Shown here: piece after piece, positions 1,083 through 34,000 of the stretch | How positions within the stretch are numbered: position 1 is the first letter of the stretch | Layout of the letters: every line of letters begins with the position of its first letter | From: a virus | IMG/VR virus record: IMGVR_UViG_3300045988_147571 | Direction: 5' to 3' (one strand) | DNA: 64,000 nucleotides | The notes under the pieces: generated by a model | What the model was told of the DNA's origin: nothing | Database searches by the model: none | Seen by the model: the letters and a program-made list of their open reading frames with translations, nothing else | Program-made: the position numbers and the translations under genes

Positions 1083-1121
1083 TATTTATACTCCTCAGTT
1101 ATGCAAAAGAGGTGCTCAATT

Positions 1122-8083: not shown

Positions 8084-8544
8084 ATGAAACTTAATTTTTC
8101 TAGTAATGAAGTAAGAAACATTTTTGCAGAAAATGATTATGCAGAGTACTCCCAGCTTATGTTTGACACAGCTATGGGAGAAGAAAAAGTATCTACAAAA
8201 GATGCTAATGACAAGATCAGAGAGATCATGTTCTCCGTACTTGGTGTAGATGAAAATTGCACTAAGAAAGAGCTTAGAAAAGCTATTCGTAGACATAAAA
8301 TTGATGTATTTGAAATCATCGAGGAAACAGTAGAGAATCTGCTTGTTTCTGGTTGGGGAGAAAACCCATTCTTCAATGAATTCGTAGAGATTAAATCTAT
8401 GGCTGATGGTGATACTAATGAGTTCTATGTACCGGATGAAGTTATTCTGACAGTGTCTGAACTTGCGGGCAATCACCATGATCTGATCAGACAGCGCCTG
8501 GCAGAAGGACAGACATTCTCTGTTAAAACTTCTTGGTATGGGAT
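8084..8544 (+). CDS. major capsid protein, exon 1 (putative)
   Basis: GGAGG RBS. The ORF runs into a stop 8 nt after the predicted 5' splice site. It joins in frame to 9786..10404, giving about 359 aa. A strong terminator follows exon 2. Identity as the capsid protein is from synteny. Confidence 0.6.
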
Positions 8545-15432: not shown

Positions 15433-15642
15433 ATGGAGATTGTAATACCTAACTTAAAAGGAGTTCCTTATGATCCTGTTCAAGCCGTAAGAATTATTGA
15501 TCCACATCAACAGAAACTCTATCTCAAGCATGGGGTAAAACCATTAGATGTTTATTATAGTCCAGATGTGATCGTAATGGTGTTTGATAAGAAAGAAAGT
15601 TATCCGTATTACAAAGAATATCAAAATCATACTTTGGAGTGA
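15433..15642 (+). CDS. hypothetical small protein
   Basis: 69-aa ORF with GGAGG RBS. Confidence 0.45.
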   Translation: MEIVIPNLKGVPYDPVQAVRIIDPHQQKLYLKHGVKPLDVYYSPDVIVMVFDKKESYPYYKEYQNHTLE

Positions 15643-15646
15643 TAAC

Positions 15647-16129
15647 GTGAGGAACTATAAAAAAAGATCTAAATACGGTGTTGATCAAACAACTAAAGGT
15701 AAACAGAATCGTACTATTGTAGATAGAAAAACAGAAAAAGAAGTATGTTTCGATTCTCTATTAGAGAAAAAGTTTTATGAAGACATCATATGTACTGGGT
15801 TAGATTCCGGTGAAATTATAGATTATGAACTACAAAAGAAATACAAATTACAACCATCTTTTAAACATAATGGAAAGACTATACGAGCAATAGACTATGT
15901 AGCAGATTTTTGGGTTAAATACTCAGATGACAGCGAAAAAGTATTTGATACAAAAGGTGGAATGGTTGATCCTTCTGCTAAGATCAAACGAAAATTAATG
16001 TATTATATCTATCCTGATTTAGATTACGTATGGATTACTCATACTAAATCCACTGGTTGGATTGATTGGGATGAAAATGAAGCTTTAAAAAGAGCAAGGA
16101 AGAAAGAGGGAAAAAAGGATGGAAATTAA
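15647..16129 (+). CDS. PD-(D/E)xK nuclease-fold protein (DUF1064-like)
   Basis: ..RAIDYVADFWV..x12..VFDTKG.. fits a D...(D/E)xK restriction-endonuclease-like core. GTG 15647 is preceded by GGAG. The ORF-track Met at 15584 overlaps the previous gene by 59 nt. Confidence 0.45.
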   Translation: MRNYKKRSKYGVDQTTKGKQNRTIVDRKTEKEVCFDSLLEKKFYEDIICTGLDSGEIIDYELQKKYKLQPSFKHNGKTIRAIDYVADFWVKYSDDSEKVFDTKGGMVDPSAKIKRKLMYYIYPDLDYVWITHTKSTGWIDWDENEALKRARKKEGKKDGN

Positions 16130-17078: not shown

Positions 17079-19613
17079 ATGGCTGATTATACAATACAAG
17101 TAGGCGTAGAAGTTGAAGATAGTAAATTGGATGCGCTGGAAACACGAATTAATTCATTAAAAGATAAACATGTTAAACTCAATGTGGATTTTGGTAATAG
17201 TAAGCAGTTGGCTAGAAACGCTCAGACAGCGGTAAAAACTATTAATAAAGCTACTGTAAAAGCTGCCAAAAACAGTCCTTCAATTAAGGGGGCCAATCTT
17301 GTAGAACAAATGGTTGATCCCGAAAAAGCTTTAAAAGCAATGTCTAGTACAGTTGGCAAGCTATCTAAATATCAGGGAAAACTTGATTTAGGAGAAGTAA
17401 GACTTTCAGTTAATCAAGGGATTATGGGAGAACTAGATGGTCTTCTTAGTAAATTAAATGAAATTAAAGCAACTGCTAAGAACATGGGATCCATCAAACT
17501 TACTGTTGGTGATAATATTAAAACACAAGACGGTAAAATAGTTGTTGGATCAAATAGCAGTGCCTCTACTGGTTCTGTCAGATCATCTGGACTAACACTT
17601 AGACAAGCGCAGGCCGAAATCAAAAAAAATATGAAAACCATTGGTACTTTACAAGAACAGTATATCAATGGTCATGTTGATGAATCTACATATAGACAGT
17701 CAAAAAAAACTATAGGACAAAGAAATGCTTATTTAGCAAGAATGGTGCAAACTCAAGGTACTGCTTCTGACTGGGTTACTTCTGCTACTGATTTTAGAGA
17801 AGCTCAAGCCAAGAATCGAGCTGCCTATAGAGAGATGATGTCTAGTGCTGATGCCTATGATAAAGTAATTAGTGATTTGGGTGAAAAACAAAAAACATTT
17901 AATGAAGCTGCTCAAGTATATAATTCTAACAGTAGAAGTCCATTAAATAAGACTTTAGGACCCGGATATCAAGCAAGGCTTACAGCTTTTAATGATGTCT
18001 ATGGTCAATTAAAAGAGTCACATGATAAAATCTCCACGCTTACTGGAGATGAAAAAGATCTTGAAAAAGTACGTTTCAGCGCTCTTAAATCTGAAGCTAA
18101 TCGTCAAGCCAGACAGCTTAATAATGTGAGTCAGTTTTTCTCAAAAACTCCAAATAAATATAGTAGATCTGAATTTGTAGGTACAGACTTAGATGTGACT
18201 TCTGATAAAGTTCAGAATAAAATGTCACAAATGGTTGATAATCTTGCTAATGGCAGTAGATATACTAAAGAATTTAATGCAGCACAAGGAAAAATGTATG
18301 CTACAATAGACAGAGGCTCTGGTGTATTTGAAAAATATCAGCTTGCATACAAAAATGGGCCAGGTAATATCGATCAGTCTCTTAGCAAAGTCACTCAGAG
18401 CGTAAAACCTCTTTCTAGTTACATTTCTGAAATGGGACAAAAGTTCCGTAGTCTTAGCCAGTATCTTATCAGTAATTTCGGATTCCAAGCTTTAACAACA
18501 GGTATCAGATCAGGTGTTACATCTATAAAAGAATTAGATTCAGCAATGACTGAATTAAAGAAAACCTCTGAAGGTACAAAACAGGAATATAGAGACTTTA
18601 CTACTCAAGCTAGGAGTGACGCTAAAGATATCGGTAGTACGACTACTCAGATTACTAATAGTGCTGCTGATTTCTCACGTCTTGACTACACACTTGGCGA
18701 ATCTCAAACTCTAGCTAAAAATACTGGTATATTAAAAAATGTATCAGAATTTGAGTCTATAGATGATGCAACAACTGCTATGATTTCTATGATGAAAGCA
18801 TATGATGTAAAAGTTGATGATTCTATGGATCTCATTGATAAAATGAATCTTATTGGTAACAACTATGCAATTTCTACAGATGGAATTGCTACCGCTTTAC
18901 AAGATTCAGGTTCAGCATTGGTAGCAGCGGGAAACGACTTTGACAAGTCAGTTGCTCTTGTGACGGCTGCTAATAGTGTAGTACAGGACCCATCAAAGGT
19001 AGGCGCTGGTCTTAGAACAATTGCTTTACGACTTAGAGGCACTTCTGCTGAAGAATTATCTTCTATGGGTGAAGATACAGAAGGTCTTGTAGAGACCACT
19101 TCTAAACTTAATTCAAATATTAAATCTCTTACTGCCGTTAACGGTAAGGCTGGAGTTTCTATTCTTGATATGAATGGAAACTATAGAGATACTTATGATA
19201 TTTTAAAAGATATCTCTCAGGTTTGGGATGATATTGGTAAGCAAGATTTGGCAGATGGTCAGAATAGACAGGCTGCTCTGCTTGAAATGATGGCAGGAAA
19301 AAATAGAAGTAATATTCTTGCATCCATATTACAGCATCCTGAATTACTTACAGATGTTTATAATGATTCCGCAAATAATTATCAAAATTCAGCTCAGAAC
19401 GAGCTTAATACATACCTTGATTCTATCGAAGCAAAAACAACTAAAATTAAAGAATCTTGGTCACAGTTATGGCAATCAGAAGGTAGTACTAATACTTTTA
19501 AAGGATTGCTTGATATTGGCAACGGCGCTGTAGGACTCTTAAATGGTTTAGGACTCAATAAAACCTTAGCCGGAGTCGGCGGTATGCTTGTTAGCCATGC
19601 TATGAACTGGGGT
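17079..19613 (+). CDS. tail tape measure protein, exon 1
   Basis: Contains a TP901-type tape measure core (..DATTAMISMMKAYDV..NNYAISTDGIATALQDSGSALVAAGNDFDKSVALVTAANSVVQDPSKVGAGLRTIALRLRG..). GAGGTGAG RBS. Exon 1 ends on a codon boundary (..HAMNWG) at the predicted 5' splice site. Confidence 0.85.
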
Positions 19614-20033
19614 GGGACAAATTATCAGTTGGTCCTTTAGAAAACGCCCCATGTAACCTGGTGGTGACACGGAACGATCTCATATGAGAAAGGGGTTACT
19701 AAGCAAACAACCGAAACTGTCTTTATTCGAAGGAATAGAGAAATGCTTTTAATTTGGCATTCAGGGTGAACCGAAGTATATACTACTCCCCTATTACAGT
19801 AATGTAATAGGTATAGTAACAACGTATATATATGGGTAATCTGCAGCGAAGCTTCTTTATTTTATAGAGAAGAACGTTCATCGACTATAATGGGAACTTG
19901 GTCTCCGGATCAAGAAGGAATAGTCAGGACTGTTAGGCAGCTTACGCCGAATAAATTAAAGGGTAAATACATCTTACTCTTGTAAGCAATCTTACCTTAT
20001 GTGCAAAGGTGATGTAAGCACAAAAGCAAGAGA

Positions 20034-20144
20034 TTACTCTCCTGCTTCTTTATGTTTAATATAATATGTACAATCTTCATTTTCAAAGTAAGGACATTCC
20101 TCTTCCTTACATTCTTTGTAGAGAGGACATTCTAATATTTCCAT
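20034..20144 (-). CDS. 36-aa four-cysteine peptide (MEILECPLYKECKEEECPYFENEDCTYYIKHKEAGE)
   Basis: Hand-translated; below the ORF-track size cutoff. GGAGG lies about 10 nt upstream of the ATG on the minus strand. Last gene of the antisense cassette. Confidence 0.4.
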   Translation of the reverse strand: MEILECPLYKECKEEECPYFENEDCTYYIKHKEAGE

Positions 20145-20219
20145 AATCTTTAAACCTCCATAGTATAGTTTTGTTGACTGTCTAAAAGAAATTATTGATT
20201 AATTTTCAGAATATAACCT

Positions 20220-20771
20220 TTAATGATTTAAAAAACATTGATCTAACTCTAATAATATTTTTTCCAAATCATCTATATTGATAATAAGAAAAAATTTTCC
20301 TTTATGATCTTCTCTAATATCTTCGTCTTCAAATTGTATAGCTTTTATTTCAGTACTTGCGTTATGAGTTAATGGATGAATCATTAAACGATCATGGCAG
20401 ACAGCATTCCTTAAATGTTTAATTACATTTCTTTCACAATTATTTTCTTTGTATGTGTTTTTATAGATCTCATTATACGTCTTATTAGTGAGTCTTTTTA
20501 ATGTAGGCACATTCTGAAAATTATCTTTTCTATTAGATAGATAATTAAAATATTTCTCTTTTGGAAAAACAAGTAACCCCAAAAAAGAATTTATTAATTG
20601 AGTGACCTCATAACATTTTTGATACTCAAATTCATTGGCAAACATAATTCTTTTTAAACAAGAAATCTCTTTATTTTTATTATGTCCAGCTAATTTTTGA
20701 ATCATGAAATAATTCATTTGTGTCCTACAAATAAACTCTTTAACATAATCATCATCTTTAAAATTACTCAT
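20220..20771 (-). CDS. HEPN-like protein (R-x4-H motif)
   Basis: ..NVIKHLRNAVCHDRLMIHP.. matches the HEPN R-x4-6-H RNase signature (RN...H) in a predicted helical 183-aa protein. GGTGAT RBS. The start lies 6 nt after the stop of the upstream zinc-ribbon gene. Confidence 0.5.
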   Translation of the reverse strand: MSNFKDDDYVKEFICRTQMNYFMIQKLAGHNKNKEISCLKRIMFANEFEYQKCYEVTQLINSFLGLLVFPKEKYFNYLSNRKDNFQNVPTLKRLTNKTYNEIYKNTYKENNCERNVIKHLRNAVCHDRLMIHPLTHNASTEIKAIQFEDEDIREDHKGKFFLIINIDDLEKILLELDQCFLNH

Positions 20772-20777
20772 AAACTA

Positions 20778-21281
20778 TCACCAAGTATATCCACAAGAGT
20801 TACACTTAAAGCTCTTGTTAATCTTCTTACTGAATAATCCCAATATTCCTACTGATACCATACGTTCTCCTGTAGAGATTTTACGAATATTGGTGGAACC
20901 ACATGTTGGACACTTAGGCCCAGTAGAGAATTTCTGAGCATTCTGTTTGGCATACCACTGGTCTGTTATCCTGTTTTGCTCTTCTATTCCTTCAGGAGAT
21001 TCACTATATTTTCTTTTTTTAACGGCAGAGTAATCTACTTCATTGTCTAACTTTCCATAAAAATATTTTTGCCTAAATATCTCAGATGATTCCAAATGAC
21101 TAGGACAATGACCATCATGAGTTTTCTCATATTCTTTTGATAGCTCCATATATGCTGTAGACCAATCAATGCCAGTACCTATATAAGTTCCAGTTTCACA
21201 GGTATAACATTTATCTCCTATTTTATAAGAAGAAGATGTACTAGTCTTTCCACATTTATTACAAAATAATAATTCTTCCAT
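20778..21281 (-). CDS. double zinc-ribbon protein
   Basis: N-terminal CNKC..x14..CYTC and C-terminal CPTC..x28..CNSC. 167 aa. First gene of the antisense cassette. Confidence 0.6.
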   Translation of the reverse strand: MEELLFCNKCGKTSTSSSYKIGDKCYTCETGTYIGTGIDWSTAYMELSKEYEKTHDGHCPSHLESSEIFRQKYFYGKLDNEVDYSAVKKRKYSESPEGIEEQNRITDQWYAKQNAQKFSTGPKCPTCGSTNIRKISTGERMVSVGILGLFSKKINKSFKCNSCGYTW

Positions 21282-21322
21282 ATTGTTCCTTTTTATTATA
21301 TATAGTAATTAAGATTAGCTAT

Positions 21323-21331
21323 ATTATATCA
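21323..21331 (-). promoter_or_regulatory. extended -10 promoter element (TGATATAAT) for the antisense cassette
   Basis: The reverse complement of 21323-21331 reads TGATATAAT. It lies about 40 nt upstream of the zinc-ribbon ATG and 10-18 nt inside the intron 3' end. The -35 region would fall in tape measure exon 2. Confidence 0.45.
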
Positions 21332-21340
21332 CACAGTTTG

Positions 21341-24300
21341 GTTTTCGCCAAGAATGAAGATGGAGAAATTTTACCGCAATCACGAAGAGCTCAACGTAAT
21401 GCTGCTATAGCGAAAGGTTATGTAGAAGCCAATAAAAATTGGCAAGCATATTCAGATGATTTAGAAGTTCTTAAAGAGCTTAACAAGCAACTTGATAATA
21501 ATGGTCAGGCCATTACAGACAACGAGCAACGTATGGCCAAAGCAAATGAAGTAACGAAGAATGCTAGTCAAAGAGCTAAAGATTATGGTAAACAAATGGC
21601 CACTAATGCTAAGACTCTCACTGATTTTAAAAGAGAAAATGAGGTAGAGAAACCTGATCAACAGAAACAAGGGAAATGGTCCGATGGTCTAAAAAGTATG
21701 GCATCTGCAGGTCTCTCAATGATTGGCAATGCTTTTATTTCCGCTGGTGTTGGAATGCTTGTGCAAGGAGCTTTCTCATTGCTTGGTAAAGGCATTGACG
21801 CTTTCGTTCATAAAAATGAGAACTTAATTGCTAAAGGTCAAGAAGCAAAAGAATCCATTCAATCCCAAACTAAAGCCTATGAAGACCAGAAAGCATCTCT
21901 TGGAGAACTTACTTCCAAATACACAGAATTATCTAAAGGCGTAAAAATATCTGGTAATTCTATTAAAAATATTAGTCTTACAGATGATGAATATAAGGAT
22001 TTCTTAAATACAAGTAATCAGATTGCTGCCGCAGCACCTAGTCTCACACGTTCATGGGACTCCCAGGGTAATGCCATTCTTAATGCTGGGACTAATGCTG
22101 AGGATTTAAACACTCAGATTAATGATTACTTGAAGTTACAGAGGAACCTTACTTACTATGATACTAAGAAAAATATTAGTAATCAGTATGAGGGATATGA
22201 AACTGCTTTAGGTACTAACGAGCGTCAAAAAAATGATTACAAAGATAAATATGATGCAGCAAAATTTAAAGTTAATTCTATGCAGAATTTTTCGAATATG
22301 CTTAAAAAGCAAAAAAAAGGAGAAGATACCTTTAGCTACACATTGGATCAAGCTGCATATGATGCACTCGGCAATACCTTTGGAAAAGCAATAAAAAACT
22401 ATACACAATCTGCTGATGGTCAAACAATAACTTTGGAATTTGATGGCAAACAATTAGATTTTCTTAACAACGAAGCAGCCAACATATTAAGTTCTGATAG
22501 TAGTGAACTTCAAGAAGCTCATACCAATTTAGTTAATACACAAGAATCTATAGATGCAGCAAAAAGAGAAATGGTTTCTTCTATCAAGTCAATGGCAAGC
22601 ACTATTGATTCTTTTGATAGCTGGGACGATCAAGATAAAGCATCAGAATTTCAATCACAGTTGAATAGTATGCTTAATTCTACGGACAATACCAGATTGC
22701 TTAATGATTTTAAAGAATCCGGTAAAGATATGGACACATGGCTTCGCAATAACATTGTGAACCCTATGTCAACTGCAAATTCAGATGAACAAAAACTTTG
22801 GGAACAAGCATTTGAAATGGAGCCTAAAGATAAAGAAACAGTTCAAGAATTTGCCGCTCGTAGAAATAATCTTTTCGATCAGATTGCTGCTATTTCTGAC
22901 AGTGATTTTTGGGATAGAGATACACTTGGAGAAGCTTTTGGCTTTAACCATACAGAATATGATGATAATGGAAAAGCTGAATTTGTATGGGAAAATCAAG
23001 ATAAGTTAAATCGAATACAAGACGCATTGAAAAATGCAAAAGCCAGTAAAACAAAAGGCGATGCTTCTGATGTAAGAACAGATCTTAATAATATGACCCC
23101 TGATGAGTTGGACATAGCTGTACAAGTTATTACTGACTCAGATGCTTTAACTTCTATAGATTCTTTTTATGAGGCATTCGAAAAGGCTAAACAAGCAGCT
23201 AAAAATATGAGTGATCAGGCAGCCGTTTCTTTAGATTCAATGGAAACTAAAGTATCAACTGCTAAGTCTACTCTTTCTTCTATGGGAACTATTCTTACAG
23301 AGACTACTTCTGCAGGCGGAGTTTCTAAAGACAATGTTAAGATTCTTTCTACTGCTTTCAAAAATGTGAAAGACCCTCGTGGCATTGAGCAAAATGTTAA
23401 TGATTTATTCACCACTACTTCTGATGGTATCAAACTAAACATAGATGCTTTGAAAACCTTTACGGAATATCAGACTGAAGCCACTGATGGAGATTTCGAA
23501 AAGGGTATTAAGTTACAGACTAAAGCTATTGCCGAGCAAGCAGAAGAAACAGATAAAGCTTGGAAAGCTATTGCTAAAGCCGATGACAAGGAAGCAGCTA
23601 GAGCAACTTATAACGCAGAAAAAGATAAATTAAAAGATGCTAGAAACGAATATTTATCTTATATGCAATCTCAGTCTGAATGGCAAGCAACTAAGAAACA
23701 GCAACAGGAACTTCTTTCTTATTATTCTCAGTGGCAACGTGCCCAGAGTACGGAGAATGCCGGAGATAAATATAATAACATTGTTGCCGGACTAAAAAAT
23801 GCTAAAGATGCATATGATAAAGGTCTTGTAGGTACAGATGATTTTAAATCATTTGCTGCTCTTATTTCTCCTACAGGTTCAGATGATAGAGCAAACTTTG
23901 CAGAGAATTATGGTAAAGCTGTAAGATACCTCACAGAAGATAAGACAGGTGTTAATAATTTCTTAGCTGATCTTAAATCTAAGGGTATGGCATCTTATGA
24001 TGATGCAAGTAAAAGATGGTCATTTGACATAGATGATATGAGTAAAGCCGCTCGATCAATGGGAATCAGCAAAGAATTCATGAGTGCTAACTTCGGTCGT
24101 CTTCGTGATTATGGCATTGATAATAATTTTATATCATCTACAGAAGAAGGTATAGATAGGGTTCAGGAACTTACTTCTGCTCTTTCAGACGAACAAAAAC
24201 GACTTGAAGAATTAAAGAATACGGATAGCACCAATACTACTGCTATTACTGCTTCTGAGGACAAAGTTAATAAATATAAACAGGATTTAAAAGAAACCTA

Positions 24301-27300
24301 TGATAATATGGGTGACTACTCTGAAGATGCTGCACAGACTGCTGTTGATAATTTTAATTCGGCAGCAATGGGTGTACAATCATATCAGAATGCAATAGAA
24401 AATGTTAAAAAGAATGAGAATCTGACAGAAGCTCAAAGAACTTCTGCAATTAATCAATTAATAGCTAAACAGGAAGAATTAGCTGCCACTTACGGTACTA
24501 CTGTTAAAGAATTATTAGGAGCAGATGTATCTTCATTAATGGATGGCATTATAACAGATTCTGCTTCTGTTACTACTGCTCTTGATGGTATCAATAAAGC
24601 ATATGAAGAACAGAACACAGATGTTACTTCTTTAGTTGACACTCTTGGAAAATATACTTCTGAACAGTTAGAAGGTATAGATTTCAATGATGGTAAGTGG
24701 GATACTGAATTAGGCGATGCTGAAAAAGCTGTTGAGTCTTTATGTGAGAAGCTTGGTTTAACAAAAGACCAAGCTCGTTCTGTTATTGAGGCTTTAAAAG
24801 AAGCTGGTAAATTAAAAGATTCTGAGGAAAGTAGTGATTCCTCTAAAGAAACTACTAAGGGGTCTTGGGAGAAACCACAGACTGCTGAACAGATGGGATT
24901 CGGTGATGATCCTGACAGAGCTGCTGAATATACACATTCATTGGAAGCTCTTACTGCTGCCCATAAAGAAAATGATGCCGCTACTGAAAAGTCATTTGAA
25001 ACCCTTTCTAAATATAATCGTACACAATTAGAGGGTATCAAATTAAATGATGGTGCTTATAATGTTGAGGGTATAGAACAGGCTGAAGATGCCATACAAC
25101 AGTTAGCAGATAAGACTCAGTTGTCTAAAGATCAGATTCTTACTGCTCTTGAAGGTCTTGGTGTTTTGAAAGTTAATGCTCCTACTATGGATGCGACAAA
25201 AGGTTTGGAAGATTTAGTTTCTGAGGCTAAAGATGCACAGGACGAATTGTCTGATCTTACTGGTAAAACATACACATTTGATTTTGATACTACTGATTTA
25301 GATACTGCTCATAAACAGGTAGCTGACCTGCAGGAAGAAGTAAATAAATATAGAGATCGTGATGGTAAATACCATCCAGAGATTACTGGCGGAGAACAGG
25401 TGCAATCAATGTACAAAGCCGCTATTGCTCAAGAACAGAATGCTGAATATAGTTCTTCTGCTATTGGACAGTCTAGTTTATCATCAGATGTCGTACAAGC
25501 TGCTCAAGATTTTATGACAGCTAAGAATGAAATGGATCAGCAAACTCAACTTTATCAAAATGGAATGGATAATACTCTTGATAAAGCTACAGAGAAAGCT
25601 AACGCCGCATTTGAATCTTTACAACAAGCTCAAACTGATTCGGGTATTGAACTTGTAGATACTAATAATATTCAAAAAGCTGAAAATCAGTTACTTTCTA
25701 TGACTGATAAAGATTTACAGGCTAAAATAGATGTTCAAGCAGATACAAGCGATGCCGAAGCAGAATTAGATGTCCTAGAAGAATTGGACGGATCTACACT
25801 TAAGCTTACTTGCGAATTATCGGATGAAGATAGTTTTGAACGAGCTAAATCTGCTATTGAATCTATGCCAGCTAACACCGTTACAACCGTAGATATGGAA
25901 GTTAATGGTGAAGAGGATGTAGAGAAAGCAACAGAGCTTATTGAATCGGCACCTACTGATGGTACTGAGCTAGTTGTTAACTGTCATGTTGATAATGCTG
26001 AAGACTTAGATAAAATAAATGAAGCTGCTGCAACTGCCAAAGCAAACGGAGCAAATATTAAAATAAACGCTACTGTTGGTGAAGTGGATGCTTCAACTGC
26101 TACGAGTACAGAACCTGTTAAAATGACAGGTGAAATAGAAAGTGCAGAATATACTGGCGCTCCAGTTGAAATAGAAGCTACAGCAAATATTACTAATGTG
26201 ACTAATGGTGATTCCGCAGAAGTTAATCCTACAATAAATACGGATGAAGTGGATAACTATACTGTCGATGACAAAGAAGTAAATGTTGATTTTAAAAAGA
26301 ATTCAGATGAAGTTGATAATTATCAACCGGACGATAAAGATGCAACTGCCTATTATGGAGTAGATTCTTCAGCACCAGATAGTTATCAGCCGAGTGATAA
26401 AGATGCATATATCACGTATCATATACGTGTTGAAGGAGGAATAGCTGCTGGCATTCCAAATAGTCCTTCTGGAGGATCTGGTGGTTCTTTTGCTACAGGT
26501 ACAATGGCATCAGTTGCTCGTGCAGATGGTACAATGTACAATGCACCTTGGAACTATCAACTTCTCTCTTCTGCTTTTGCAAAAGGAGATGCTGCTTTAC
26601 ATAAAGACGAAAAAGCGTTAGTAAACGAAGTCGGGACCGAATCTATTGTGCGTGACGGTACTTGGTTTACGATTCCTGGCGGAGCACATCTTGAGAATCT
26701 TAAAAAAGGAGATATTATTTTCTCTGCTCAACAGACTAAAGATTTACTTGAACATGGCGCAACACCGGGACATGCTAGAACTTATGCACAAGGCACAGCC
26801 CCAGGATTAAGTATCTCTCCTGCTTTCTCATCTGGTTCTAGTTCTTCTACTAACACAGAATTAGATAACAAAATCAAAGAAGTTAGTACTCAGGCAAAAG
26901 ACTGGATAGACGTAGCTCTTGATCGTTTAGAGAGAATCGTTGAAAAATACAAAGACACTGCTGAAAGTGACTATTCCAACTATAGAGCTTCTATTAAGGC
27001 TTACAATTCAGCACTTAAAAATCTTAAAAACCAATTAAAGACTCAAAAAGATTCCAGAGCAAAGTATGTAACTAAAGCAGACGAAGTCGCTTCTGCTGTC
27101 GGATTGTCTGACGATTTAAAAAAGAAGGTTCAAAATGGTACTATCAATATAGAGAACCTGTCAGAAGATGATAAAAAACGTGTTGATGCATATCAGGAAT
27201 GGTATGAAAAAATCTTAGACTGTGACAAAGCTATACGTCAGCTCACTATTTCGCAGAAAGATTTAGCTAAAGCTAAAGTTGATCGGGTTACTGAAGCTTA

Positions 27301-30013
27301 TGACACTGTTATAGGCAAACGTGAAAGTAAAGCTGAATATTACAAAGCAAAACAGGAATTAAGAATCACTCAAGGTTACAATCAGAAACCTGGATCTATT
27401 TATGAGAAGTATATAAAAAATGAACTTTCTTATACTAATAAACAGAAGAAACTTACTGATAAGGAAATAAAAACCTATAAAGGTAAGATGAAAGAATATC
27501 TTGCAGAAAATGGTCATAAAACTGTTGATCCTGAATATCAGAAAATGAAGAAACAGCTTTATGATCTGGAAACCTCAGCTGTTAAATTAGAGAATGAAGC
27601 CGCACAGTTAAGACAGGCTCTACAAGATAATCGTGAACAGATTAAACAATGGGCGGTTGACCGTTGGGAAAGAGCTGGTAGTAAACAAGATGCAGTAATT
27701 AATTATAAGACTGTTTCTGATGATCCAAACTATCAGATCAAGGAAAAGGATTACACTGAGAGAATCAAAACAAATAATCGTCAGATTATAGCTTTACAGA
27801 AGTTGAGAGCAGAAAAAGCTGAGTACTATGACAGTTATTTTAAGAGCGGAAACAACGAAGAAGCTCAGAAATATCTTGAAGCTATTGCTCAGATTGACGA
27901 ACAGATTCTAAAACTTGGAGCTAGTACAGAAGAGTTAAAGAATCAAATCATGGAACTTCGTTGGAAGCCATTTGAAGATATTCAAGATGACCTTTCTAAT
28001 GTAATCAGTGAGTATCAAACCATGCAGAAGCTTCTTGGTGATACAGAAAGTTTCTACAATGACGATGGATCTTTCACTGAAAATGGTTTGACAAATATCC
28101 TTCTTTTACAGGAATCTATTGATGTTACTAAGCAGAAAATAGCTAACTATAGAGAAGCTTTAGACAAACTAGATGAACAGTATAAGAATGGTTGTTATAG
28201 TCAGGAAGAATATACTGAGAAATCTAAAGAGCTATTAAACGGATTACAGCAAGAGTCTGCTGCCCTCTCTGATTTGCAACAGAATATGCTTACAATGTAT
28301 GAGACTCAGGTTAAAACTGAGAATGATCTCTTACAGAAAAATATTGATAAGCGTTTGGAAGCTCTTGATGCTAAAGAGAAGTATTATGAGTATGATAAGA
28401 CTTTGAAAAAGAAGTCTAAAGATATTAATACTCTGAAGGCACAGATAGCAGCCCTTGAAGGAACAAGCAATGCTGCTGCCAAAGCCCGTTTAGAAAAATT
28501 AAAGGCTGAATTAGCAGAATCTGAAGAGGATATGCAAGATACTGTTCATAATCATGAAACTGAAATGAAGAAAACAGGTTTTGAGAATCTTCAATCAGAT
28601 GCTGAGAAAGCTCTTGATAATACCTTAGATGCACTGAAAAAGAATACCAATTTTCAGCAAGCAGTTATTGGTAATATGTTATCCAATGTAACTGCTAATT
28701 ATGATAGTACCTATAGTCATCTGCATGATGTTATGGATCAATATGGAGTACAGGTGTCTACTACATTTGATAAGATGATTACTAAGTCTGCTAATTTTAA
28801 TACGTCCTTAGTAGCACAGACTAAAGCTATGCAAGATGTTATTAATATGGCTACTAAACTTCCTGCCAATCTTGGCGGGACTGCTACTGACATTGTAAAT
28901 AATACTGCTAAAGTTAATGGTACTTCAACCGGAGCCGGTAATGTAACGCCGGGAAAAGTAAATGATACGACTTACTCTCTGAAGTTAAATGCATCAGAAA
29001 TTTATCTAACATACAGTCATTTGAAATATTCATTGAAAGCTACATGGTCTCCAAGTAAACCGGAACACTCTGATATTGAATGGTCGAGTACAGATAAATC
29101 AGTTGCAAAGGTCTCAACTTCTGGTGTTGTTACAGGTGTAGCTGCGCCACTTAGTAAACTTGGATTAATGTCAAGAGATGAATCTTTGACTAGAAAATGT
29201 AAGATTATTGCAAATGGTGGTCCGGGTCTTGCAAAAGCTGAGTGTACGGTACATATTATGCCAGATGAACATTATAATGCCATTAAGCAATATGCTGATA
29301 AAGTTGGCATCGATACTTCTAAAGAAGGCAATAATCTTAGAGATGCTATGGAATACGCTTATAAAAATGGTGCATTCCGAAGCAATCAGTCAAGTACCGC
29401 TGTTGAAGGATTCCAGAAAGCTTATCTAAAAGACTGGTTTAATGCTCTTCCAGACCGTCCTAACGGTGCAACGGATGTTCCTAGTGGAGTTAGTCAGCTA
29501 GCTGGATATTTCTATTCCAAAGGTAAACAAGTCACACGTAATGATATGCAGAAACTTGCTGATATCCTTCAGATTAAAACTCCGGGAGTTGGAAGTTATG
29601 ATACCTGGGGTGGCACACTTAAAAATAAGATTCTGAAAGCATACAAAGCTTATGGTTATGCTACTGGTGGCGTAATCAATAGACTTGTTCCTGCCAATAT
29701 GGAAACACTCTTAGGTAAAGCAATCATCTCCAATGGAGATCAAGGTTTTATTGGCGCTAAAGTTGGAGAAACCGTAATGACTGAAGAGTTCACTCGTTTG
29801 CTCAAACCTTCTATTGCTGCAATGAGCGACTTTACCAATATGTTTAACCCAACTACTCCTATTGCTACCACAAATAATGATTATTCTATCAACAATGAGG
29901 TAAACATTAATGTAGCAAGTATGAGCAGTGATTTAGACATCCAAGATGTCGCCAATAAAGTCTCTACAATTATTAATAAGAATATGACTAGAGACTGGAG
30001 AAAACTTAGATGA
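21341..30013 (+). CDS. tail tape measure protein, exon 2
   Basis: 2890 codons of mostly coiled-coil, Ala/Lys/Glu/Gln-rich sequence. An internal tape-measure C-terminus-like motif is present (ALVNEVGTESIV..IPGGAHL). A Big_2-like Ig domain lies near the C-terminus (..KATWSPSKPEHSDIEWSSTDKSVAKVSTSGVVTGV..). No RBS precedes the ORF-track TTG start at 21338. Confidence 0.8.
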   Translation, partial: VFAKNEDGEILPQSRRAQRNAAIAKGYVEANKNWQAYSDDLEVLKELNKQLDNNGQAITDNEQRMAKANEVTKNASQRAKDYGKQMATNAKTLTDFKRENEVEKPDQQKQGKWSDGLKSMASAGLSMIGNAFISAGVGMLVQGAFSLLGKGIDAFVHKNENLIAKGQEAKESIQSQTKAYEDQKASLGELTSKYTELSKGVKISGNSIKNISLTDDEYKDFLNTSNQIAAAAPSLTRSWDSQGNAILNAGTNAEDLNTQINDYLKLQRNLTYYDTKKNISNQYEGYETALGTNERQKNDYKDKYDAAKFKVNSMQNFSNMLKKQKKGEDTFSYTLDQAAYDALGNTFGKAIKNYTQSADGQTITLEFDGKQLDFLNNEAANILSSDSSELQEAHTNLVNTQESIDAAKREMVSSIKSMASTIDSFDSWDDQDKASEFQSQLNSMLNSTDNTRLLNDFKESGKDMDTWLRNNIVNPMSTANSDEQKLWEQAFEMEPKDKETVQEFAARRNNLFDQIAAISDSDFWDRDTLGEAFGFNHTEYDDNGKAEFVWENQDKLNRIQDALKNAKASKTKGDASDVRTDLNNMTPDELDIAVQVITDSDALTSIDSFYEAFEKAKQAAKNMSDQAAVSLDSMETKVSTAKSTLSSMGTILTETTSAGGVSKDNVKILSTAFKNVKDPRGIEQNVNDLFTTTSDGIKLNIDALKTFTEYQTEATDGDFEKGIKLQTKAIAEQAEETDKAWKAIAKADDKEAARATYNAEKDKLKDARNEYLSYMQSQSEWQATKKQQQELLSYYSQWQRAQSTENAGDKYNNIVAGLKNAKDAYDKGLVGTDDFKSFAALISPTGSDDRANFAENYGKAVRYLTEDKTGVNNFLADLKSKGMASYDDASKRWSFDIDDMSKAARSMGISKEFMSANFGRLRDYGIDNNFISSTEEGIDRVQELTSALSDEQKRLEELKNTDSTNTTAITASEDKVNKYKQDLKETYDNMGDYSEDAAQTAVDNFNSAAMGVQSYQNAIENVKKNENLTEAQRTSAINQLIAKQEELAATYGTTVKELLGADVSSLMDGIITDSASVTTALDGINKAYEEQNTDVTSLVDTLGKYTSEQLEGIDFNDGKWDTELGDAEKAVESLCEKLGLTKDQARSVIEALKEAGKLKDSEESSDSSKETTKGSWEKPQTAEQMGFGDDPDRAAEYTHSLEALTAAHKENDAATEKSFETLSKYNRTQLEGIKLNDGAYNVEGIEQAEDAIQQLADKTQLSKDQILTALEGLGVLKVNAPTMDATKGLEDLVSEAKDAQDELSDLTGKTYTFDFDTTDLDTAHKQVADLQEEVNKYRDRDGKYHPEITGGEQVQSMYKAAIAQEQNAEYSSSAIGQSSLSSDVVQAAQDFMTAKNEMDQQTQLYQNGMDNTLDKATEKANAAFESLQQAQTDSGIELVDTNNIQKAENQLLSMTDKDLQAKIDVQADTSDAEAELDVLEELDGSTLKLTCELSDEDSFERAKSAIESMPANTVTTVDMEVNGEEDVEKATELIESAPTDGTELVVNCHVDNAEDLDKINEAAATAKANGANIKINATVGEVDASTATSTEPVKMTGEIESAEYTGAPVEIEATANITNVTNGDSAEVNPTINTDEVDNYTVDDKEVNVDFKKNSDEVDNYQPDDKDATAYYGVDSSAPDSYQPSDKDAYITYHIRVEGGIAAGIPNSPSGGSGGSFATGTMASVARADGTMYNAPWNYQLLSSAFAKGDAALHKDEKALVNEVGTESIVRDGTWFTIPGGAHLENLKKGDIIFSAQQTKDLLEHGATPGHARTYAQGTAPGLSISPAFSSGSSSSTNTELDNKIKEVSTQAKDWIDVALDRLERIVEKYKDTAESDYSNYRASIKAYNSALKNLKNQLKTQKDSRAKYVTKADEVASAVGLSDDLKKKVQNGTINIENLSEDDKKRVDAYQEWYEKILDCDKAIRQLTISQKDLAKAKVDRVTEAYDTVIGKRESKAEYYKAKQELRITQGYNQKPGSIYEKYIKNELSYTNKQKKLTDKEIKTYKGKMKEYLAENGHKTVDPEYQKMKKQLYDLETSAVKLENEAAQLRQALQDNREQIKQWAVDRWERAGSKQDAVINYKTVSDDPNYQIKEKDYTERIKTNNRQIIALQKLRAEKAEYYDSYFKSGNNEEAQKYLEAIAQIDEQILKLGASTEELKNQIMELRWKPFEDIQDDLSNVISEYQTMQKLLGDTESFYNDDGSFTENGLTNILLLQESIDVTKQKIANYREALDKLDEQYKNGCYSQEEYTEKSKELLNGLQQESAALSDLQQNMLTMYETQVKTENDLLQKNIDKRLEALDAKEKYYEYDKTLKKKSKDINTLKAQIAALEGTSNAAAKARLEKLKAELAESEEDMQDTVHNHETEMKKTGFENLQSDAEKALDNTLDALKKNTNFQQAVIGNMLSNVTANYDSTYSHLHDVMDQYGVQVSTTFDKMITKSANFNTSLVAQTKAMQDVINMATKLPANLGGTATDIVNNTAKVNGTSTGAGNVTPGKVNDTTYSLKLNASEIYLTYSHLKYSLKATWSPSKPEHSDIEWSSTDKSVAKVSTSGVVTGVAAPLSKLGLMSRDESLTRKCKIIANGGPGLAKAECTVHIMPDEHYNAIKQYADKVGIDTSKEGNNLRDAMEYAYKNGAFRSNQSSTAVEGFQKAYLKDWFNALPDRPNGATDVPSGVSQLAGYFYSKGKQVTRNDMQKLADILQIKTPGVGSYDTWGGTLKNKILKAYKAYGYATGGVINRLVPANMETLLGKAIISNGDQGFIGAKVGETVMTEEFTRLLKPSIAAMSDFTNMFNPTTPIATTNNDYSINNEVNINVASMSSDLDIQDVANKVSTIINKNMTRDWRKLR

Positions 30014-30074: not shown

Positions 30075-31019
30075 ATGTTACAATTTGAATTTGATGGACA
30101 CAATTCTAATGAATACGGGATTATAGTAACCGCTATTACAGATAATGATAATCTTGAGAGCAGATCTTTGCAGCTAGGAGAAAAGAACCGATATAGAGCA
30201 AGGGAAAATCATTTTGGTGCACTTTATGATGGAAACTACTCTTTTACTCTAAGTATTATGAAAAATCCTTGTAGAACTGTAAATGTTGTGCCAAATTTAG
30301 TAGAAGGAATAGTTAAATATCCAGAACAATGTAGACCTACTATGGAAAACAATATTCTTACTTTCCCATTGGATTATACTCCAGATATTAAACAGGGTAC
30401 AATGCAAATGAATAATACTGATTATTTATCTTCAAGCAATATTCGTATAATAAACAGTTGGCTAACTTCTCCGCAAACCCCAAGACTGTTTAAAATAATT
30501 GGTGGAGACTATTTTTATGAAGAAATAGAATTTTTTGTTACTTTTACAGAAATTAATACTGATCATGTGATATTTCCATATGAAATGAACTTTACAGTAA
30601 CTTGTGATAGTCCTTATGGATACACTCCAGAATTTACGCATAGTATCACCTCTTCTTCCACTCTTACAAAAACTCATGTAATTAATAACACTTCTGATTG
30701 CCATGAAGATTATATTTATCCTCTTATCAAAATTTCTCCTAAAAGTCATGGTACTATAACAATCCAAAATGTAACAGATAATAATGGTACAATGAAAATT
30801 GACGCATTGAAGAATGACAATTTTTATATTGATTGTCAGCATTTAAAAATATATGACACAACTAATTCTATTATAAGTTTTGAGAGTCTAGGTGTAAAAG
30901 ATACAGATAATATATACTGGCCTAGATTAGCTTATGGTGAAAATATATTAAAATTTACTGGTGATGCAACATTTGAAATTATTTATAGAGAGCCAAGAAA
31001 GGTAGGTGCGTTCGCATGA
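30075..31019 (+). CDS. distal tail protein Dit (putative)
   Basis: 314-aa ORF immediately after the tape measure gene. The N-terminus MLQFEFDGHNSNEYGIIV resembles siphophage Dit proteins. GAGGTG RBS. Confidence 0.6.
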   Translation: MLQFEFDGHNSNEYGIIVTAITDNDNLESRSLQLGEKNRYRARENHFGALYDGNYSFTLSIMKNPCRTVNVVPNLVEGIVKYPEQCRPTMENNILTFPLDYTPDIKQGTMQMNNTDYLSSSNIRIINSWLTSPQTPRLFKIIGGDYFYEEIEFFVTFTEINTDHVIFPYEMNFTVTCDSPYGYTPEFTHSITSSSTLTKTHVINNTSDCHEDYIYPLIKISPKSHGTITIQNVTDNNGTMKIDALKNDNFYIDCQHLKIYDTTNSIISFESLGVKDTDNIYWPRLAYGENILKFTGDATFEIIYREPRKVGAFA

Positions 31020-34000
31020 AAATAAACCATAAATATGATGTTTATGGACGCACTGAGCCTTCAATTATATATTTAGCCAAACCAGGCAAAAGATTATTCT
31101 GTGCTCTTGGTGGAATTGACAGTTCTACTGTCTCACTATCATTAAAAACAAATAATACAGCAGAGCTAACATTCACAGTAGATAAGTATATAAATAATGC
31201 CCTTACTGATGGATATGAAGAATTAGATGAATTGATGGAATTATACTGTGATGGAATTTGGTTCAAAATTGTAGATCCGCCCACGATTAGCAACAATGGA
31301 ATGCGTGAAACCAAAGAAATCACTGCTGAATCTTATGAGATTATGCTTACCCAGTATAAATTGAAAAACTTTAAAATCAATATGGGTGAAGAAGATTCAT
31401 ATGAAATGATGTATCAAGCTACTCATGACAAAAGCAAGTTTTATCAAATTAAATTCTACGACCCAGACAATGAAGATTTAAGTTTTCTTCATTTAGTCTT
31501 AAAACATGCAGATGTTCCTGGATGGAAAATAGGATATGTAGATAATATTACTCCTGATGATGACGGAAAACTACTTCCTAATAATATTTGTAACTTTGAA
31601 GTAGACGACCAGAATGTGTATGCATTTTTAACTCAAGAAGCTGCTCAAGGTTATAAGTGTGTATTTGAATTTGATACTGTCAATATGACTATAAATGTTT
31701 ATAGACCTGACAGCTTAGGAAAAGATACAAATGTAGTCTTGGGATTTAGGAATATACAAAATAGCGTAACCATTTCCAGAGATGAAAATTTAGTTACACA
31801 ATTTTATGTTGAAGGCTTAGATGATTATAATATTGATGCAGTCAATTTTGGTGATTCTGTAATTACTGATCTTTCCTATTTTATACGTGAGCCTTACATG
31901 GATACTTCACTACAAGAAAAATATAATGCATGGCAAAGCTACCGGGAGTCCCGCAGAGAAGAGTTTATTAATTTATCCAAAGAATATAATAAAAATCTGG
32001 AAGTTCTTACTGAATTAATGAATAGAGTCCCAATTGATACTGCTCAAACAAATTGGTTCGGGAAAAAAGTTGAAGATTTAAAAGATGCATATAATGCTAA
32101 CATGGCAATCATTAAGGGTTTAGAAGCTCTATATGTTGACGATGAAAAGAATTTTGATTTAGAAGCTTTAAAAAAGTCACATGATTGGCCTTTATATGAA
32201 TCAATTATGAACTACACTCTTCCATCTATTGTGGCTGCATTACAAGCTCAAGACGAAACCGTAGAAGGATTCGGTAAAGGAAATATTATTTCATGTGTAA
32301 ATCCGATTGTATTGGGCCAAGATTGGTATATGGTAAACCCTGGAACTTCTTCTTTTCAAACTATACAAATTGATGATGCTCCTGCTTATGGAATCACTCG
32401 TGGAGTTAAAGTAACTGGTACTAATGGAGGAATTTATCAACACAATATTAGTATTGAACCATCTCAGAGATATACTCTTAGTTGTTTTGTAAAAGGATCC
32501 GGTACATTTTATCTTGGTTATAATAACACCGGAGAGGACAGAAAGAATATTTCTTATAACATCACATCTTCTTGGACCAGAGTTTATACTTCTTTCAATC
32601 TTTCTTCTCGTTTAATTGATGTAGCATTCACTGGAACTAATGATTTCACTATATGCGGTATGCAATTAGAGATGGGCGATTCACCTAGCCAGTTTGGGTA
32701 TTTCACGCAATCTGAAAATATTATAAAAGCTTATGAGACTGATTGGAAGTTATACGGAATCTCAGAATTAAAAGTAAAGATTTCAACTTACGATAGCTGT
32801 ATTAAAGAATTAAAAAAGAGTGGTTATGCAGATGGGTATAATCCTTTATCTGGATATGAAGAAGCATATTTTACTCAGATGCATCAAAAATATCTGGATT
32901 ATCTGAATTTAAAAGATCAGGCTGAGGCTGCTTTAAAAGAACGCCAGGCTGAATATGATAAGGCTAAGAAACCTGAAATTCAAGAGAAACGAAATCAGAT
33001 TGCAAAAGATGTATTACTTGAAAATTTTGGTAAAATACAGAACAAATATTCAGCATTTACTGATAAAGAAACATATATTATTAAGAGTTTATATAGCCAA
33101 TCCACTTATACAAATGAAAATATTATTGTTACTACTCTTGACAGTACTGCTGATGCCGTAGATAAGTCTAAAGTTCTTTATGATGATGCATTGGAAGAAT
33201 TGTATGTGGAATCACATCCACAATATACATATACTGATGATGTAGAGAATGTATACGCTCTTCCAGAGTTTAAGGAGTACCATGAACAGCTTGCAGTAAA
33301 TGATTTTGTACGTGTAGGAATCACTGATACTAATTATATTAAACTAAGAGTAATTGAGATCACATATAATCCTTGTGATTTAGATGAATCTATGGAAATT
33401 ACTTTTAGCAATATGATTCAGTACAAAGCTAAAAGGAATGATTATAATACTCTTTTAAACGATGCTCTTAATACTTCCAACCGTAATGGTGGTCGTGTTA
33501 ATTCAGTCAACAAATCTACTACTTCTGACTATGTAATCACTTCTGATGCTATTAAGCAGATTTTCTCAAATCCTCTCTTCAATTCAATGTTAGGTGGAGC
33601 TACTACCGGAGGAACTGGATCAGGAGGCACTATTACTGCTGGTATGATCGTTGCAGAACTCGTGAAAGCAAAAGAAGGTGTATTTGATAAGCTTACTGTT
33701 GATACTGCTTTCATGAAATATCTCGATGTAAAACTTGTTTCCGCAGATAAGATTACAACTCGTATTCTCGAAGCGGAACAGGCAAATATTGAAAAGCTGT
33801 CAGCTAAGATTATAGAATCTAATCAGATTAATGCTGATATGATCAATGTGAAAAATCTCCTGGCAGGAAATGCTGGTGTAGGTAATCTCCAGGCAGTACA
33901 TCTTACTGCTCAGAATGTAACTATTGACCAAGCAGTAATCACGGATCTTATTGCTAAGAAGATGACTGTAGCTGACTTAAATACTCATACTGCTACTGCT

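Follow-up and report, generated by a model that had tools for sequence, protein, structure and literature searches.

A predicted group I intron in a gut phage tape-measure gene as a probable shelter for exchangeable toxin- and defence-type genes

The IMG/VR virus record IMGVR_UViG_3300045988_147571, analysed here as a stretch of 64,000 nucleotides (the window), carries a tape-measure gene whose reading frame is interrupted by a candidate group I intron. On the plus strand, the open reading frame (ORF) at 17079-19640 ends with the stop codon TAG at 19638-19640, and the next open frame extends over 21338-30013, its length being 2891 aa when counted from a TTG at 21338 or 2890 codons when counted from 21341. 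The first exon of the proposed gene (17079..19613, plus strand, 845 codons, Pfam PhageMin_Tail with E=6e-17) finishes with AAC TGG GGU, at the same position in all close relatives, and the second (21341..30013, plus strand, 2890 codons) opens with GUUUUC at 21341-46. The intron between them (19614..21340, plus strand, 1727 nt) would be composed of a ribozyme core, a 3' cargo region and a terminal G. When position 19613 is joined to 21341, a single open frame of 3735 codons is obtained, which reads ...SHAMNWG|VFAKNEDGE... across the junction. A preliminary description of this DNA, made from its letters, had already placed the stop at 19640, a continuation of 2890 codons from 21341 and the end of exon 1 on a codon boundary; the ORF list agrees with these coordinates, and the joined frame (...NWG|VFAK..., open over its 3735 codons) agrees with the boundary.

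Both exons would be recognised by one guide, GAAAACGCCCC, located at 19640-19650, which together with the next A spans 19640-19651. Over this span it is the reverse complement of the junction UGGGGU|GUUUUC, save for the wobble between U19613 and G19646. The 11-nt guide with a U.G wobble reported earlier is thus recovered, and the match extends to 12 positions, UGGGGU pairing with GCCCCA. The P1 hairpin (19608..19651, plus strand), in which the exon strand UGGGGU at 19608-19613 pairs with the guide strand GCCCCA at 19646-19651, is found in the minimum free energy (MFE) fold and includes a P1 extension, GGAC/GUCC, on the same strand. The P10 strand of the guide, GAAAAC at 19640-19645, pairs with the GUUUUC that opens exon 2, and in relatives a C to U change leaves a G.U pair in this helix. 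These pairings were evaluated with a strict Watson-Crick scan and shuffled sequences, a GU-tolerant scan having been dropped because of its many false optima; the 12 strict Watson-Crick pairs of P1 plus P10 were matched by 4/200 shuffles of the local sequence. The ligated exon junction is predicted to read ...AACTGGGGT|GTTTTCGCC...

The ribozyme core corresponds to the 5' ~350 nt of the intron (P1-P9). A sensitive Rfam scan of 19500-21500 aligned Intron_gpI (RF00028) with 19713-19947 over the full model (1-253), with 25.4 bits and E=7e-4. Since this value lies below the gathering score of 50, the whole-window scan at curated Rfam thresholds did not report this intron, the second of the window, and gave only the first one (8536-8909, 71.3 bits). 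In the Rfam search that the preliminary description had suggested as a check, the model was thus matched over its entire length but under the gathering threshold. It has to be noted that the gathering score is a criterion of one model, and not of the group I class. The P-, Q-, R- and S-like elements that had been pointed out before coincide with the Rfam-aligned P4, P4', P7 and P7' at 19760, 19838, 19876 and 19914, respectively.

Independently of the Rfam model, the MFE fold of 19604-20060 (z = -4.1) recovers P1 with its extension, P2, P2.1, P4/P5, P6, P7 and P8. On the plus strand, P2 is formed by GUAACC and GGUUAC (19653-58 x 19694-99), P2.1 by CUUUAUUC and GAAUAGAG (19721-28 x 19733-40), and the P5/P5b hairpin, capped by a GNRA loop, by CCUAUUACA and UGUAAUAGG (19790-98 x 19803-11). 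Fold and Rfam alignment give P4 as CAGG/UCUG (19762-65 x 19840-43), as well as P6 (19852-60 x 19864-72) and P8 (19897-903 x 19908-14), and P7 is formed by GACUAU and AUAGUC (19883-88 x 19920-25) with A19926 bulged. P3 is weak, its best candidate being CAUU/AAUG (19758-61 x 19889-92). Peripheral P9 hairpins, seen in folds, occupy 19934..20022.

The far 3' end of the intron appears to be returned to this core by P9.0, in which the J7/9 strand GGACUGU (19927..19933) pairs with ACAGUUU (21333-39), a segment (21333..21340, both strands of the helix being on the plus strand) that closes with the terminal G21340. This G directly precedes exon 2 and is invariant in 23 intron versions, and the 3' strand of P9.0 ends 1 nt before it, so that its earlier designation as the omega-G candidate is upheld. 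In addition, GUGAUGUAA at 20009-17 can pair with UUAUAUCAC at 21324-32, closing off the cargo; this pairing is conserved and presents no co-variation. Another segment, AAACUGU at 19714-19720, lies upstream of P2.1 and is complementary to 21333-21339 over all 7 bp; it could represent an alternative, inactive conformer or a chance match. The MFE fold of a mini-intron prefers it; however, it was rejected as the P9.0 partner, since J7/9 is the only pairing partner in relatives whose 3' ends differ.

Relatives of this locus were collected as 26 IMG/VR contigs and 80 public-metagenome loci, plus further loci found through the encoded proteins. All close relatives are interrupted at exactly the same codon boundary, by 23 distinct intron versions of 1711-3846 nt, and the splice boundaries are identical in every interrupted relative examined, with intron lengths of ~0.8-5 kb overall. 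Among the close relatives, identity in the core is 96-98%, whereas the remainder of the intron turns over; in one group of them two substitutions and a 6-nt deletion still leave P6 as a perfect hairpin. In diverged lineages the helices were assigned by hand and their pairing was checked by script, a MAFFT alignment of the diverged cores being structurally unreliable. Each of six lineages has its own sequences in P4, P7 and P8, yet the three helices remain fully paired in all of them, and equivalents of the core helices with changed sequence are fully paired in L095, L063, L142, L061 and L128. Hairpins homologous to P2 and P2.1, read by eye, are also present, and a clearer P3 can be read in the same way (UGGAA/UUCCA, CGCA/UGCG and CUUGG/CCAGG).

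The pairings that define the splice sites follow the same behaviour. For lineages in which the intron lies at the homologous G| codon between diverged exons, P1 and P10 were established by the strict scan with shuffles plus direct reading. Thus, the window-type junction UGGGGU|GUUUUC, with its guide GAAAAC-GCCCCA, is replaced in L061 by CGAGGGU|AUAUU with AAUAU-GCCCUCG, in L063 by UGUCGGU|AUUU with AAAU-GCCGACA, in L083 by UCCGGU|AAUG with CAUU-GCCGGA, in L095 by GUAGGU|AUAUUC with GAAUAU-GCCUAC, and in L142 by UGUCGGU|AUAUUCAA with UUGAAUAU-GCCGACA, the last being matched by 0/200 shuffles; the P1 exon and guide strands are CGGUGGU/GCUACCG in a lineage with 45% identity and GUGGGU/GCCCAC in L110. 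As read from these sequences, P1 and P10 co-vary with differing exons at the homologous codon. P9.0 changes likewise, from GGACUGU/ACAGUUU in the window to GGACU/AGUCU in L080, GGACUU/AAGUUC in L095, GAACUA/UAGUUC in L063, GUACUA/UAGUAU in L142 and GUACU/AGUAU in L128, and in the six lineages its 3' strand ends 1 nt short of the terminal G, spanning 0.7-4.3 kb of cargo. The far 3' end therefore co-evolves with the core, which implies that the entire interval, including the cargo, is one intron. Taking into account the shuffles, the z-score of the fold and the recurrence at a homologous codon, a chance origin of these features is unlikely, and the group I intron proposed in the preliminary description, with its textbook guide, terminal G and restored frame, finds support in the helices and their co-variation across lineages. 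A variant is seen in L128 (~6597 and ~10900), where the U.G wobble is substituted by a C.A pair (exon GGC, guide ACCGAC) and P10 is mismatched; this may be either a tolerated C.A+ wobble or the mark of a decaying intron.

Homologues in which the tape-measure gene is uninterrupted were found in L091, L103, L108, L122 and L143, with 42-45% identity to the window in exon 1 and 533 to >2000 aa beyond the homologous point. In a MAFFT alignment, the spliced window protein and these homologues are gap-free at the junction (WG|VFAK vs YG-LLGK, GG-ILGR and others), and the homology picks up again in exon 2, as in FVHKNENLIAKGQEA vs YIHREEIAIEKGQEA. Because the uninterrupted homologues align across the junction and with exon 2, the two ORFs can be regarded as parts of one tape-measure gene. 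A spliced protein of 3735 aa would imply an unusually long tail. A megablast of 18600-22400 against GenBank phages gave no match, and the tape-measure matches among them, in Enterococcus and Brevibacillus phages, are only 23-30% identical. An SPbeta-like label was considered for the window and restricted to distant relatives, since the neighbouring tail genes gave no Yom*/SPbeta families in Pfam. Two proteins that seemed to cross the junction (P0018 and P0019) were discarded as artefacts, in which upstream starts had been called within the 3' end of another intron.

The 1.4 kb that separates the core from the 3' splice site was described earlier as lacking plus-strand ORFs of at least 60 aa, and this is correct (the longest have 46, 40 and 31 aa); the interval, however, is not empty, and contains three ORFs on the minus strand, with a G+C content of 28.5% in the cargo vs 38.7% in the core. 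Reading along the minus strand, a promoter scan identified a sigma-70-type promoter at 21323..21351 that straddles the 3' splice site, with 10/12 matches and an extended -10 TG. Its -35 box, TTGGCG (21351-21346), belongs to exon 2, whereas its -10 box, TG-n-TATAAT (21328-21323), conserved in relatives, is inside the intron, 17 nt being the spacer between them. The predicted promoter is followed by a gene for a 167-aa double zinc-ribbon protein, here called ZnR (20778..21281, from the ORF list), by one for a 183-aa HEPN protein of the pEK499_p136 family (20220..20771, Pfam PF18736), and by a 36-aa Cys-rich ORF (20034..20144), which is preceded by a GGAGG ribosome-binding site read from the sequence and has no family match in Pfam, PADLOC or PHROGs. 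The array closes with a terminator-like hairpin of 12 bp (20026..20045) followed by UUUUGUGCUU on the minus strand, which is seen in the fold of 20075-19995 and was not reported by a simple terminator scan. Only 6 nt separate the ZnR stop from the HEPN start, and the position of ZnR upstream of HEPN is suggestive of toxin-antitoxin coupling. On these predicted features, the 1.4 kb is an organised antisense operon and not remnant DNA, and it is the local form of a hypervariable cargo region whose position is kept throughout a broad clade of phages.

The preliminary description had inferred that the intron lost or replaced its endonuclease gene. Neither the three window ORFs nor the scanned cargo of relatives gave a homing endonuclease of the LAGLIDADG, GIY-YIG, HNH, His-Cys or PD-(D/E)XK/EDxHD types. 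Since the relatives at this site carry none that is recognisable in the cargo that was scanned, there is no documented loss; what occupies the interval is the antisense operon, and the inference is not supported in that wording.

The HEPN protein exceeds the PF18736 cut-off of 26.6 bits with a score of 56.9 and presents the motif R121-NAVC-H126 (R-x4-H). Differences between its alleles are mostly synonymous (synonymous to non-synonymous changes of 16:4, 19:11 and 20:10), which indicates purifying selection; a tblastn search against GenBank phages gave no match. Members of the pEK499_p136 family have been associated with defence operons of the restriction-modification and Pgl types (Anantharaman et al. 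2013, PMC3710099). The window protein resembles that family in passing the Pfam threshold and keeping R-x4-H. It differs in its partner, since no ZnR-type partner has been described for the family, whereas the window subfamily is always paired with ZnR; it was found only in this intron context, always right after the form of ZnR that ends in "...CGYTW". The form with a "...CGAKF" C-terminus precedes the other effectors.

ZnR bears CxxC pairs at residues 7/25 and 124/160. The family comprises 329 clusters at 90% identity, all unnamed, and an exhaustive search at E<=1e-3 gave 3426 representatives, many of them outside this architecture. The AlphaFold model (pLDDT, the predicted local distance difference test score, of 82.7) shows a ribbon at either end, with four helices between the two and a disordered insert in the C-terminal one. 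Structure and sequence searches (Foldseek against PDB and BFVD, and PDB by sequence) gave, apart from the zinc ribbons discussed below, one unannotated gut-virome homologue, and a match to the zinc ribbon of IS1595 transposases stays under threshold (22.7 bits vs a cut-off of 25.4). From the operon layout it could be guessed that ZnR binds nucleic acid and acts as partner or regulator of the effector encoded downstream, although we regard this as rather doubtful.

Between fixed boundaries, the cargo changes from one relative to another. Where the 3' end of the intron was captured, which is where its position was scored, ZnR is found antisense and adjoining the 3' splice site and exon 2 in >40 loci, down to 38% exon identity. 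This last case is L063, with an intron of 765 nt and the shortest ZnR version (97 aa), and the same arrangement occurs in the 45%-identity lineage and in metagenome-assembled genomes (MAGs) of Roseburia, Lachnospiraceae, Ruminococcaceae and other Clostridia. The cargo of close relatives includes HEPN, a 100-aa membrane protein, a 225-aa HExxH protein and a 305-aa protein, as well as sense-strand ORFs of 154, 51 and 56 aa. Lineages with 43-45% identity have introns of 1921-5113 nt with the same splice boundaries and varied genes between core and ZnR, coding for a TIR protein (PADLOC ThsB, 3e-39), GmrSD_N/NsnA-like proteins, NYN/HEC-09, an HD protein, a PemK/MazF-like toxin, DUF3800, and more HExxH and membrane proteins. 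PADLOC models matched by the relatives' cargo are ThsB, NsnA, PD-T4-2_A and HEC-09.

The traces of this exchange can be located. L001, L002 and L005 match the window at 92-100% identity over exon 1, the core, HEPN and the C-terminus of ZnR; from mid-ZnR across the 3' splice site into exon 2 the figure falls to 59-72%, and this drop points to a recombination breakpoint within the ZnR gene. The HEPN gene of L008 bears a "...QCGAKF" tail, which can be read as the scar of a recombination in which a segment comprising HEPN and the C-terminal end of ZnR entered a ZnR gene of the GAKF type.

Additional features were observed in some relatives. In L061 (6711-8000; ENA ERZ28633457 scaffold_16), the tape-measure gene is interrupted a second time ~200 codons upstream of the site, by an interval with a 307-aa sense ORF that is zinc-finger-rich and has an endonuclease-like C-terminus; this upstream interruption also appears in P0038, P0041, P0047, P0049, P0057, P0062, P0063 and P0070, whose proteins begin with ...RTIALR. 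A Lachnospiraceae MAG (L149, 6719-8249) has three tandem 156-aa ZnR-like ORFs by a long tape-measure-like ORF, and in L085 (8404-8473) a skipping-rope RNA (RF02924) is present at 51.5 bits, above threshold, ~1.8 kb 3' of the exon-1 stop.

The tape-measure genes of prophages from the Bacillus cereus group are known to harbour group I introns (Tourasse & Kolsto 2008, PMC2504315). Those genes, like that of the L061-type relatives with a second upstream intron, have several insertion sites; in contrast, the introns reported there occur with or without homing endonucleases, no antisense operons or defence-type cargo being described in that work, whereas at the window site the cargo region is hypervariable and reaches ~5 kb. 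The mobile introns of T4-type phages (td, nrdB and nrdD; PMC2988022, T4 elements) also loop protein-coding DNA out of the ribozyme. They are mobilised by sense-strand homing endonucleases with 3'- or loop-located ORFs, whereas the window ORFs are antisense, with a predicted promoter and terminator of their own and no endonuclease signature. The first intron of the window (8536-8909, 71.3 bits in Rfam), which is followed by a sense-strand 260-aa GIY-YIG/I-HmuI-NUMOD-like endonuclease ORF (8980-9762), has the classical mobile-intron layout and contrasts with the second one. In fungi and protists, group I introns of the nuclear rDNA contain antisense genes for His-Cys box homing endonucleases. 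They share with the window intron the presence of protein genes opposite the intron RNA strand, but the window has a phage operon of bacterial type that codes for no endonuclease. With regard to the cargo, a parallel is offered by the anti-phage hotspots of P2/P4 prophages and satellites (PMC9122126), in which, at a fixed position between conserved phage genes, close relatives have unrelated toxin or defence genes in place of one another and TIR, HEPN, nuclease and membrane effectors are typical; however, these hotspots are intergenic, whereas the window site is within an essential structural coding sequence and its tolerance would depend on RNA splicing. Full-text literature searches found no paper on defence or toxin cargo in a group I intron, an absence there that is not proof.

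Taking all these results together, we consider it very probable that the tape-measure gene of this large gut siphovirus-like phage contains a splicing-competent group I intron that serves as a recombination-exchanged shelter for toxin/defence-type genes. Other explanations have been weighed against this one. It could be argued that the gene is truly split into two proteins, exon 2 being translated from the TTG at 21338 and the intervening DNA being an ordinary intergenic moron cassette, given that this TTG is in frame and that gene callers annotate two proteins in all relatives. This seems a very remote prospect: the codon preceding exon 2, TTG in the window, is CTG, ACG or TCG in relatives, no Shine-Dalgarno sequence was found in the 25 nt 5' of exon 2 (UUAGCUAUAUUAUAUCACACAGUUUG), uninterrupted homologues exist, and the co-variation of guide, P9.0 and core would be left unexplained. 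The independent start mentioned in the preliminary description as an alternative is thus contradicted. A decaying intron, dead for splicing, in a defective prophage that has lost the tape-measure function or obtains it otherwise, would account for the sub-threshold Rfam score, the weak P3, the length and AT-richness of the insertion (GC of 28.5%, compared with 38.7% for the core) and the C.A pair and P10 mismatch of L128. However, both exons are intact over 3735 codons, the core is conserved at 96% or more in 23 distinct versions while the cargo turns over, and compensatory changes maintain P1, P10 and P9.0 across lineages; core conservation and compensatory changes require selection on the RNA, which makes a dead relic highly improbable.

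A different question is whose interests the cargo serves. It might be the selfish machinery of the intron itself, with ZnR as a novel factor for mobility, recombination or maintenance and HEPN and the other toxins as addiction modules. ZnR is the sole protein-coding gene always present at the site, and always beside the 3' splice site, no classical endonuclease was found there, the 6-nt spacer between ZnR and HEPN resembles toxin-antitoxin coupling, and there is the weak, sub-threshold likeness to the IS1595 transposase zinc ribbon. Nevertheless, ZnR has no nuclease or recombinase motif, its predicted fold matches zinc ribbons only, its shortest version has 97 aa, many of its >3400 representatives lie outside this architecture, and, with the intron fixed in all close relatives, no present-day mobility can be seen; we find this proposal unlikely. 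Remoter than any of these is an IStron-like element, in which a DNA transposon joined to a group I intron would have delivered the cargo. The IStrons CdISt1 and BcISt1 (PMC4227781; bioRxiv 10.1101/2023.11.20.567912) do have the same layout, with a 5' ribozyme core and 1-2 kb of non-endonuclease cargo before the 3' splice site, and splicing renders their insertion harmless, as it presumably does here; the weak IS1595 match (22.7 bits vs 25.4) could also be invoked. Their cargo, however, is an IS200/IS605 transposase or TnpB, and no transposase or TnpB domain appears in any cargo protein scanned here; the P7.1/P7.2 hairpins described for IStron ribozymes are missing from the window intron; and instead of dispersed copies there is a single orthologous site in one gene, whose cargo is exchanged rather than transposed.

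Several points weigh against the proposal of a splicing-competent shelter. The Rfam score is half the gathering score, Rfam gave no group I match in the introns of the relatives' loci, and in the window P3 has only 4-bp candidates (CAUU/AAUG or UUUU/GGAA) in competition with a hairpin at 19742-19761. For a bacterial group I intron, a length of up to 5 kb is unusual, and antisense transcription, together with a stable plus-strand hairpin and a partial U-run at 20026-20055, could hinder read-through or folding. The ligated-junction pattern ATGRACTGGGGTGTTTTYG had 0 matches in IMG/VR, and the collections searched contained no close intron-less allele and no ligated-junction protein or contig, so that the argument for splicing is one of sequence logic. 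Regarding the cargo, HEPN and ZnR match no family in PADLOC (v2) or PHROG, and the Foldseek and PDB searches assigned ZnR only to generic TFIIS/ribosomal-type zinc ribbons.

According to the mechanism that we propose, the late transcript would read through the cargo and fold, the guide at 19640-19651 aligning both exons via P1 and P10 while P9.0 (19927-33 x 21333-39) returns the distant 3' end and G21340 to the core, and splicing would lead to a single tape-measure protein of 3735 aa. While late transcription is off, presumably in a lysogen or in early infection, the antisense operon, located in the 1.35 kb between core and P9.0, would be transcribed from its own promoter by the host RNA polymerase, yielding a HEPN RNase-type effector, translationally coupled, with its ZnR partner. 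Co-resident phages would swap the cargo by homologous recombination in the conserved flanks, which are the near-identical exon 1 and core on one side and the ZnR gene and exon 2 on the other. As the intron would render an insertion in an essential gene phenotypically silent, it would explain why a hotspot exists at this site. We infer both splicing and a defence activity of the cargo; the "defence" label derives from domain content and from PADLOC matches in relatives, and not from the two proteins of the window. Inter-phage or anti-phage conflict, with ZnR as effector partner or regulator, would be the candidate roles. Going further, and only tentatively, this intron lineage of gut Clostridia phages might constitute a dedicated platform for gene exchange, an "intron-sheltered defence island" framed by the ribozyme and ZnR, whose cassettes, among them HEPN, TIR, GmrSD-like, NYN and MazF-like ones, would be swapped by recombination and expressed independently of the host gene, with ZnR as a hitherto unrecognised regulator or partner on which the arrangement depends.

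Other parts of the window also deserve description. A 1021-aa ORF (1101-4166) has a LAGLIDADG_3 domain at residues 303-375, which may correspond to an intein or to an in-frame endonuclease insertion, the possible host gene being large and of the early or packaging type. The tape-measure gene is followed downstream by two very large ORFs, of 2050 aa (31016-37168) and 2296 aa (39888-46778), the former with collagen repeats and a Peptidase_S74 chaperone domain, which are typical of tail fibres. A DUF1064 protein is encoded among the tail genes (15584-16129); in L063 the syntenic place has a weak RecU match, and an integrase lies directly upstream of the tape-measure gene.

Group I introns of phages have usually been seen as selfish DNA with a homing endonuclease, if anything, as cargo. 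In the lineage described here, the harmlessness of the intron appears to have been exploited to house variable toxin/defence-type genes in an essential late gene, whose flanks, being near-identical between phages, would be an ideal substrate for cassette exchange. There is also a practical warning, namely that gene callers split such tape-measure genes and that the Rfam group I model misses this intron family. If confirmed, this would represent a new type of accessory-gene hotspot, intragenic and splicing-dependent, and would provide a concrete reason for the persistence of endonuclease-less introns in phage structural genes, while the ZnR family, with its >3400 representatives, and the HEPN subfamily would become candidates for new conflict systems.

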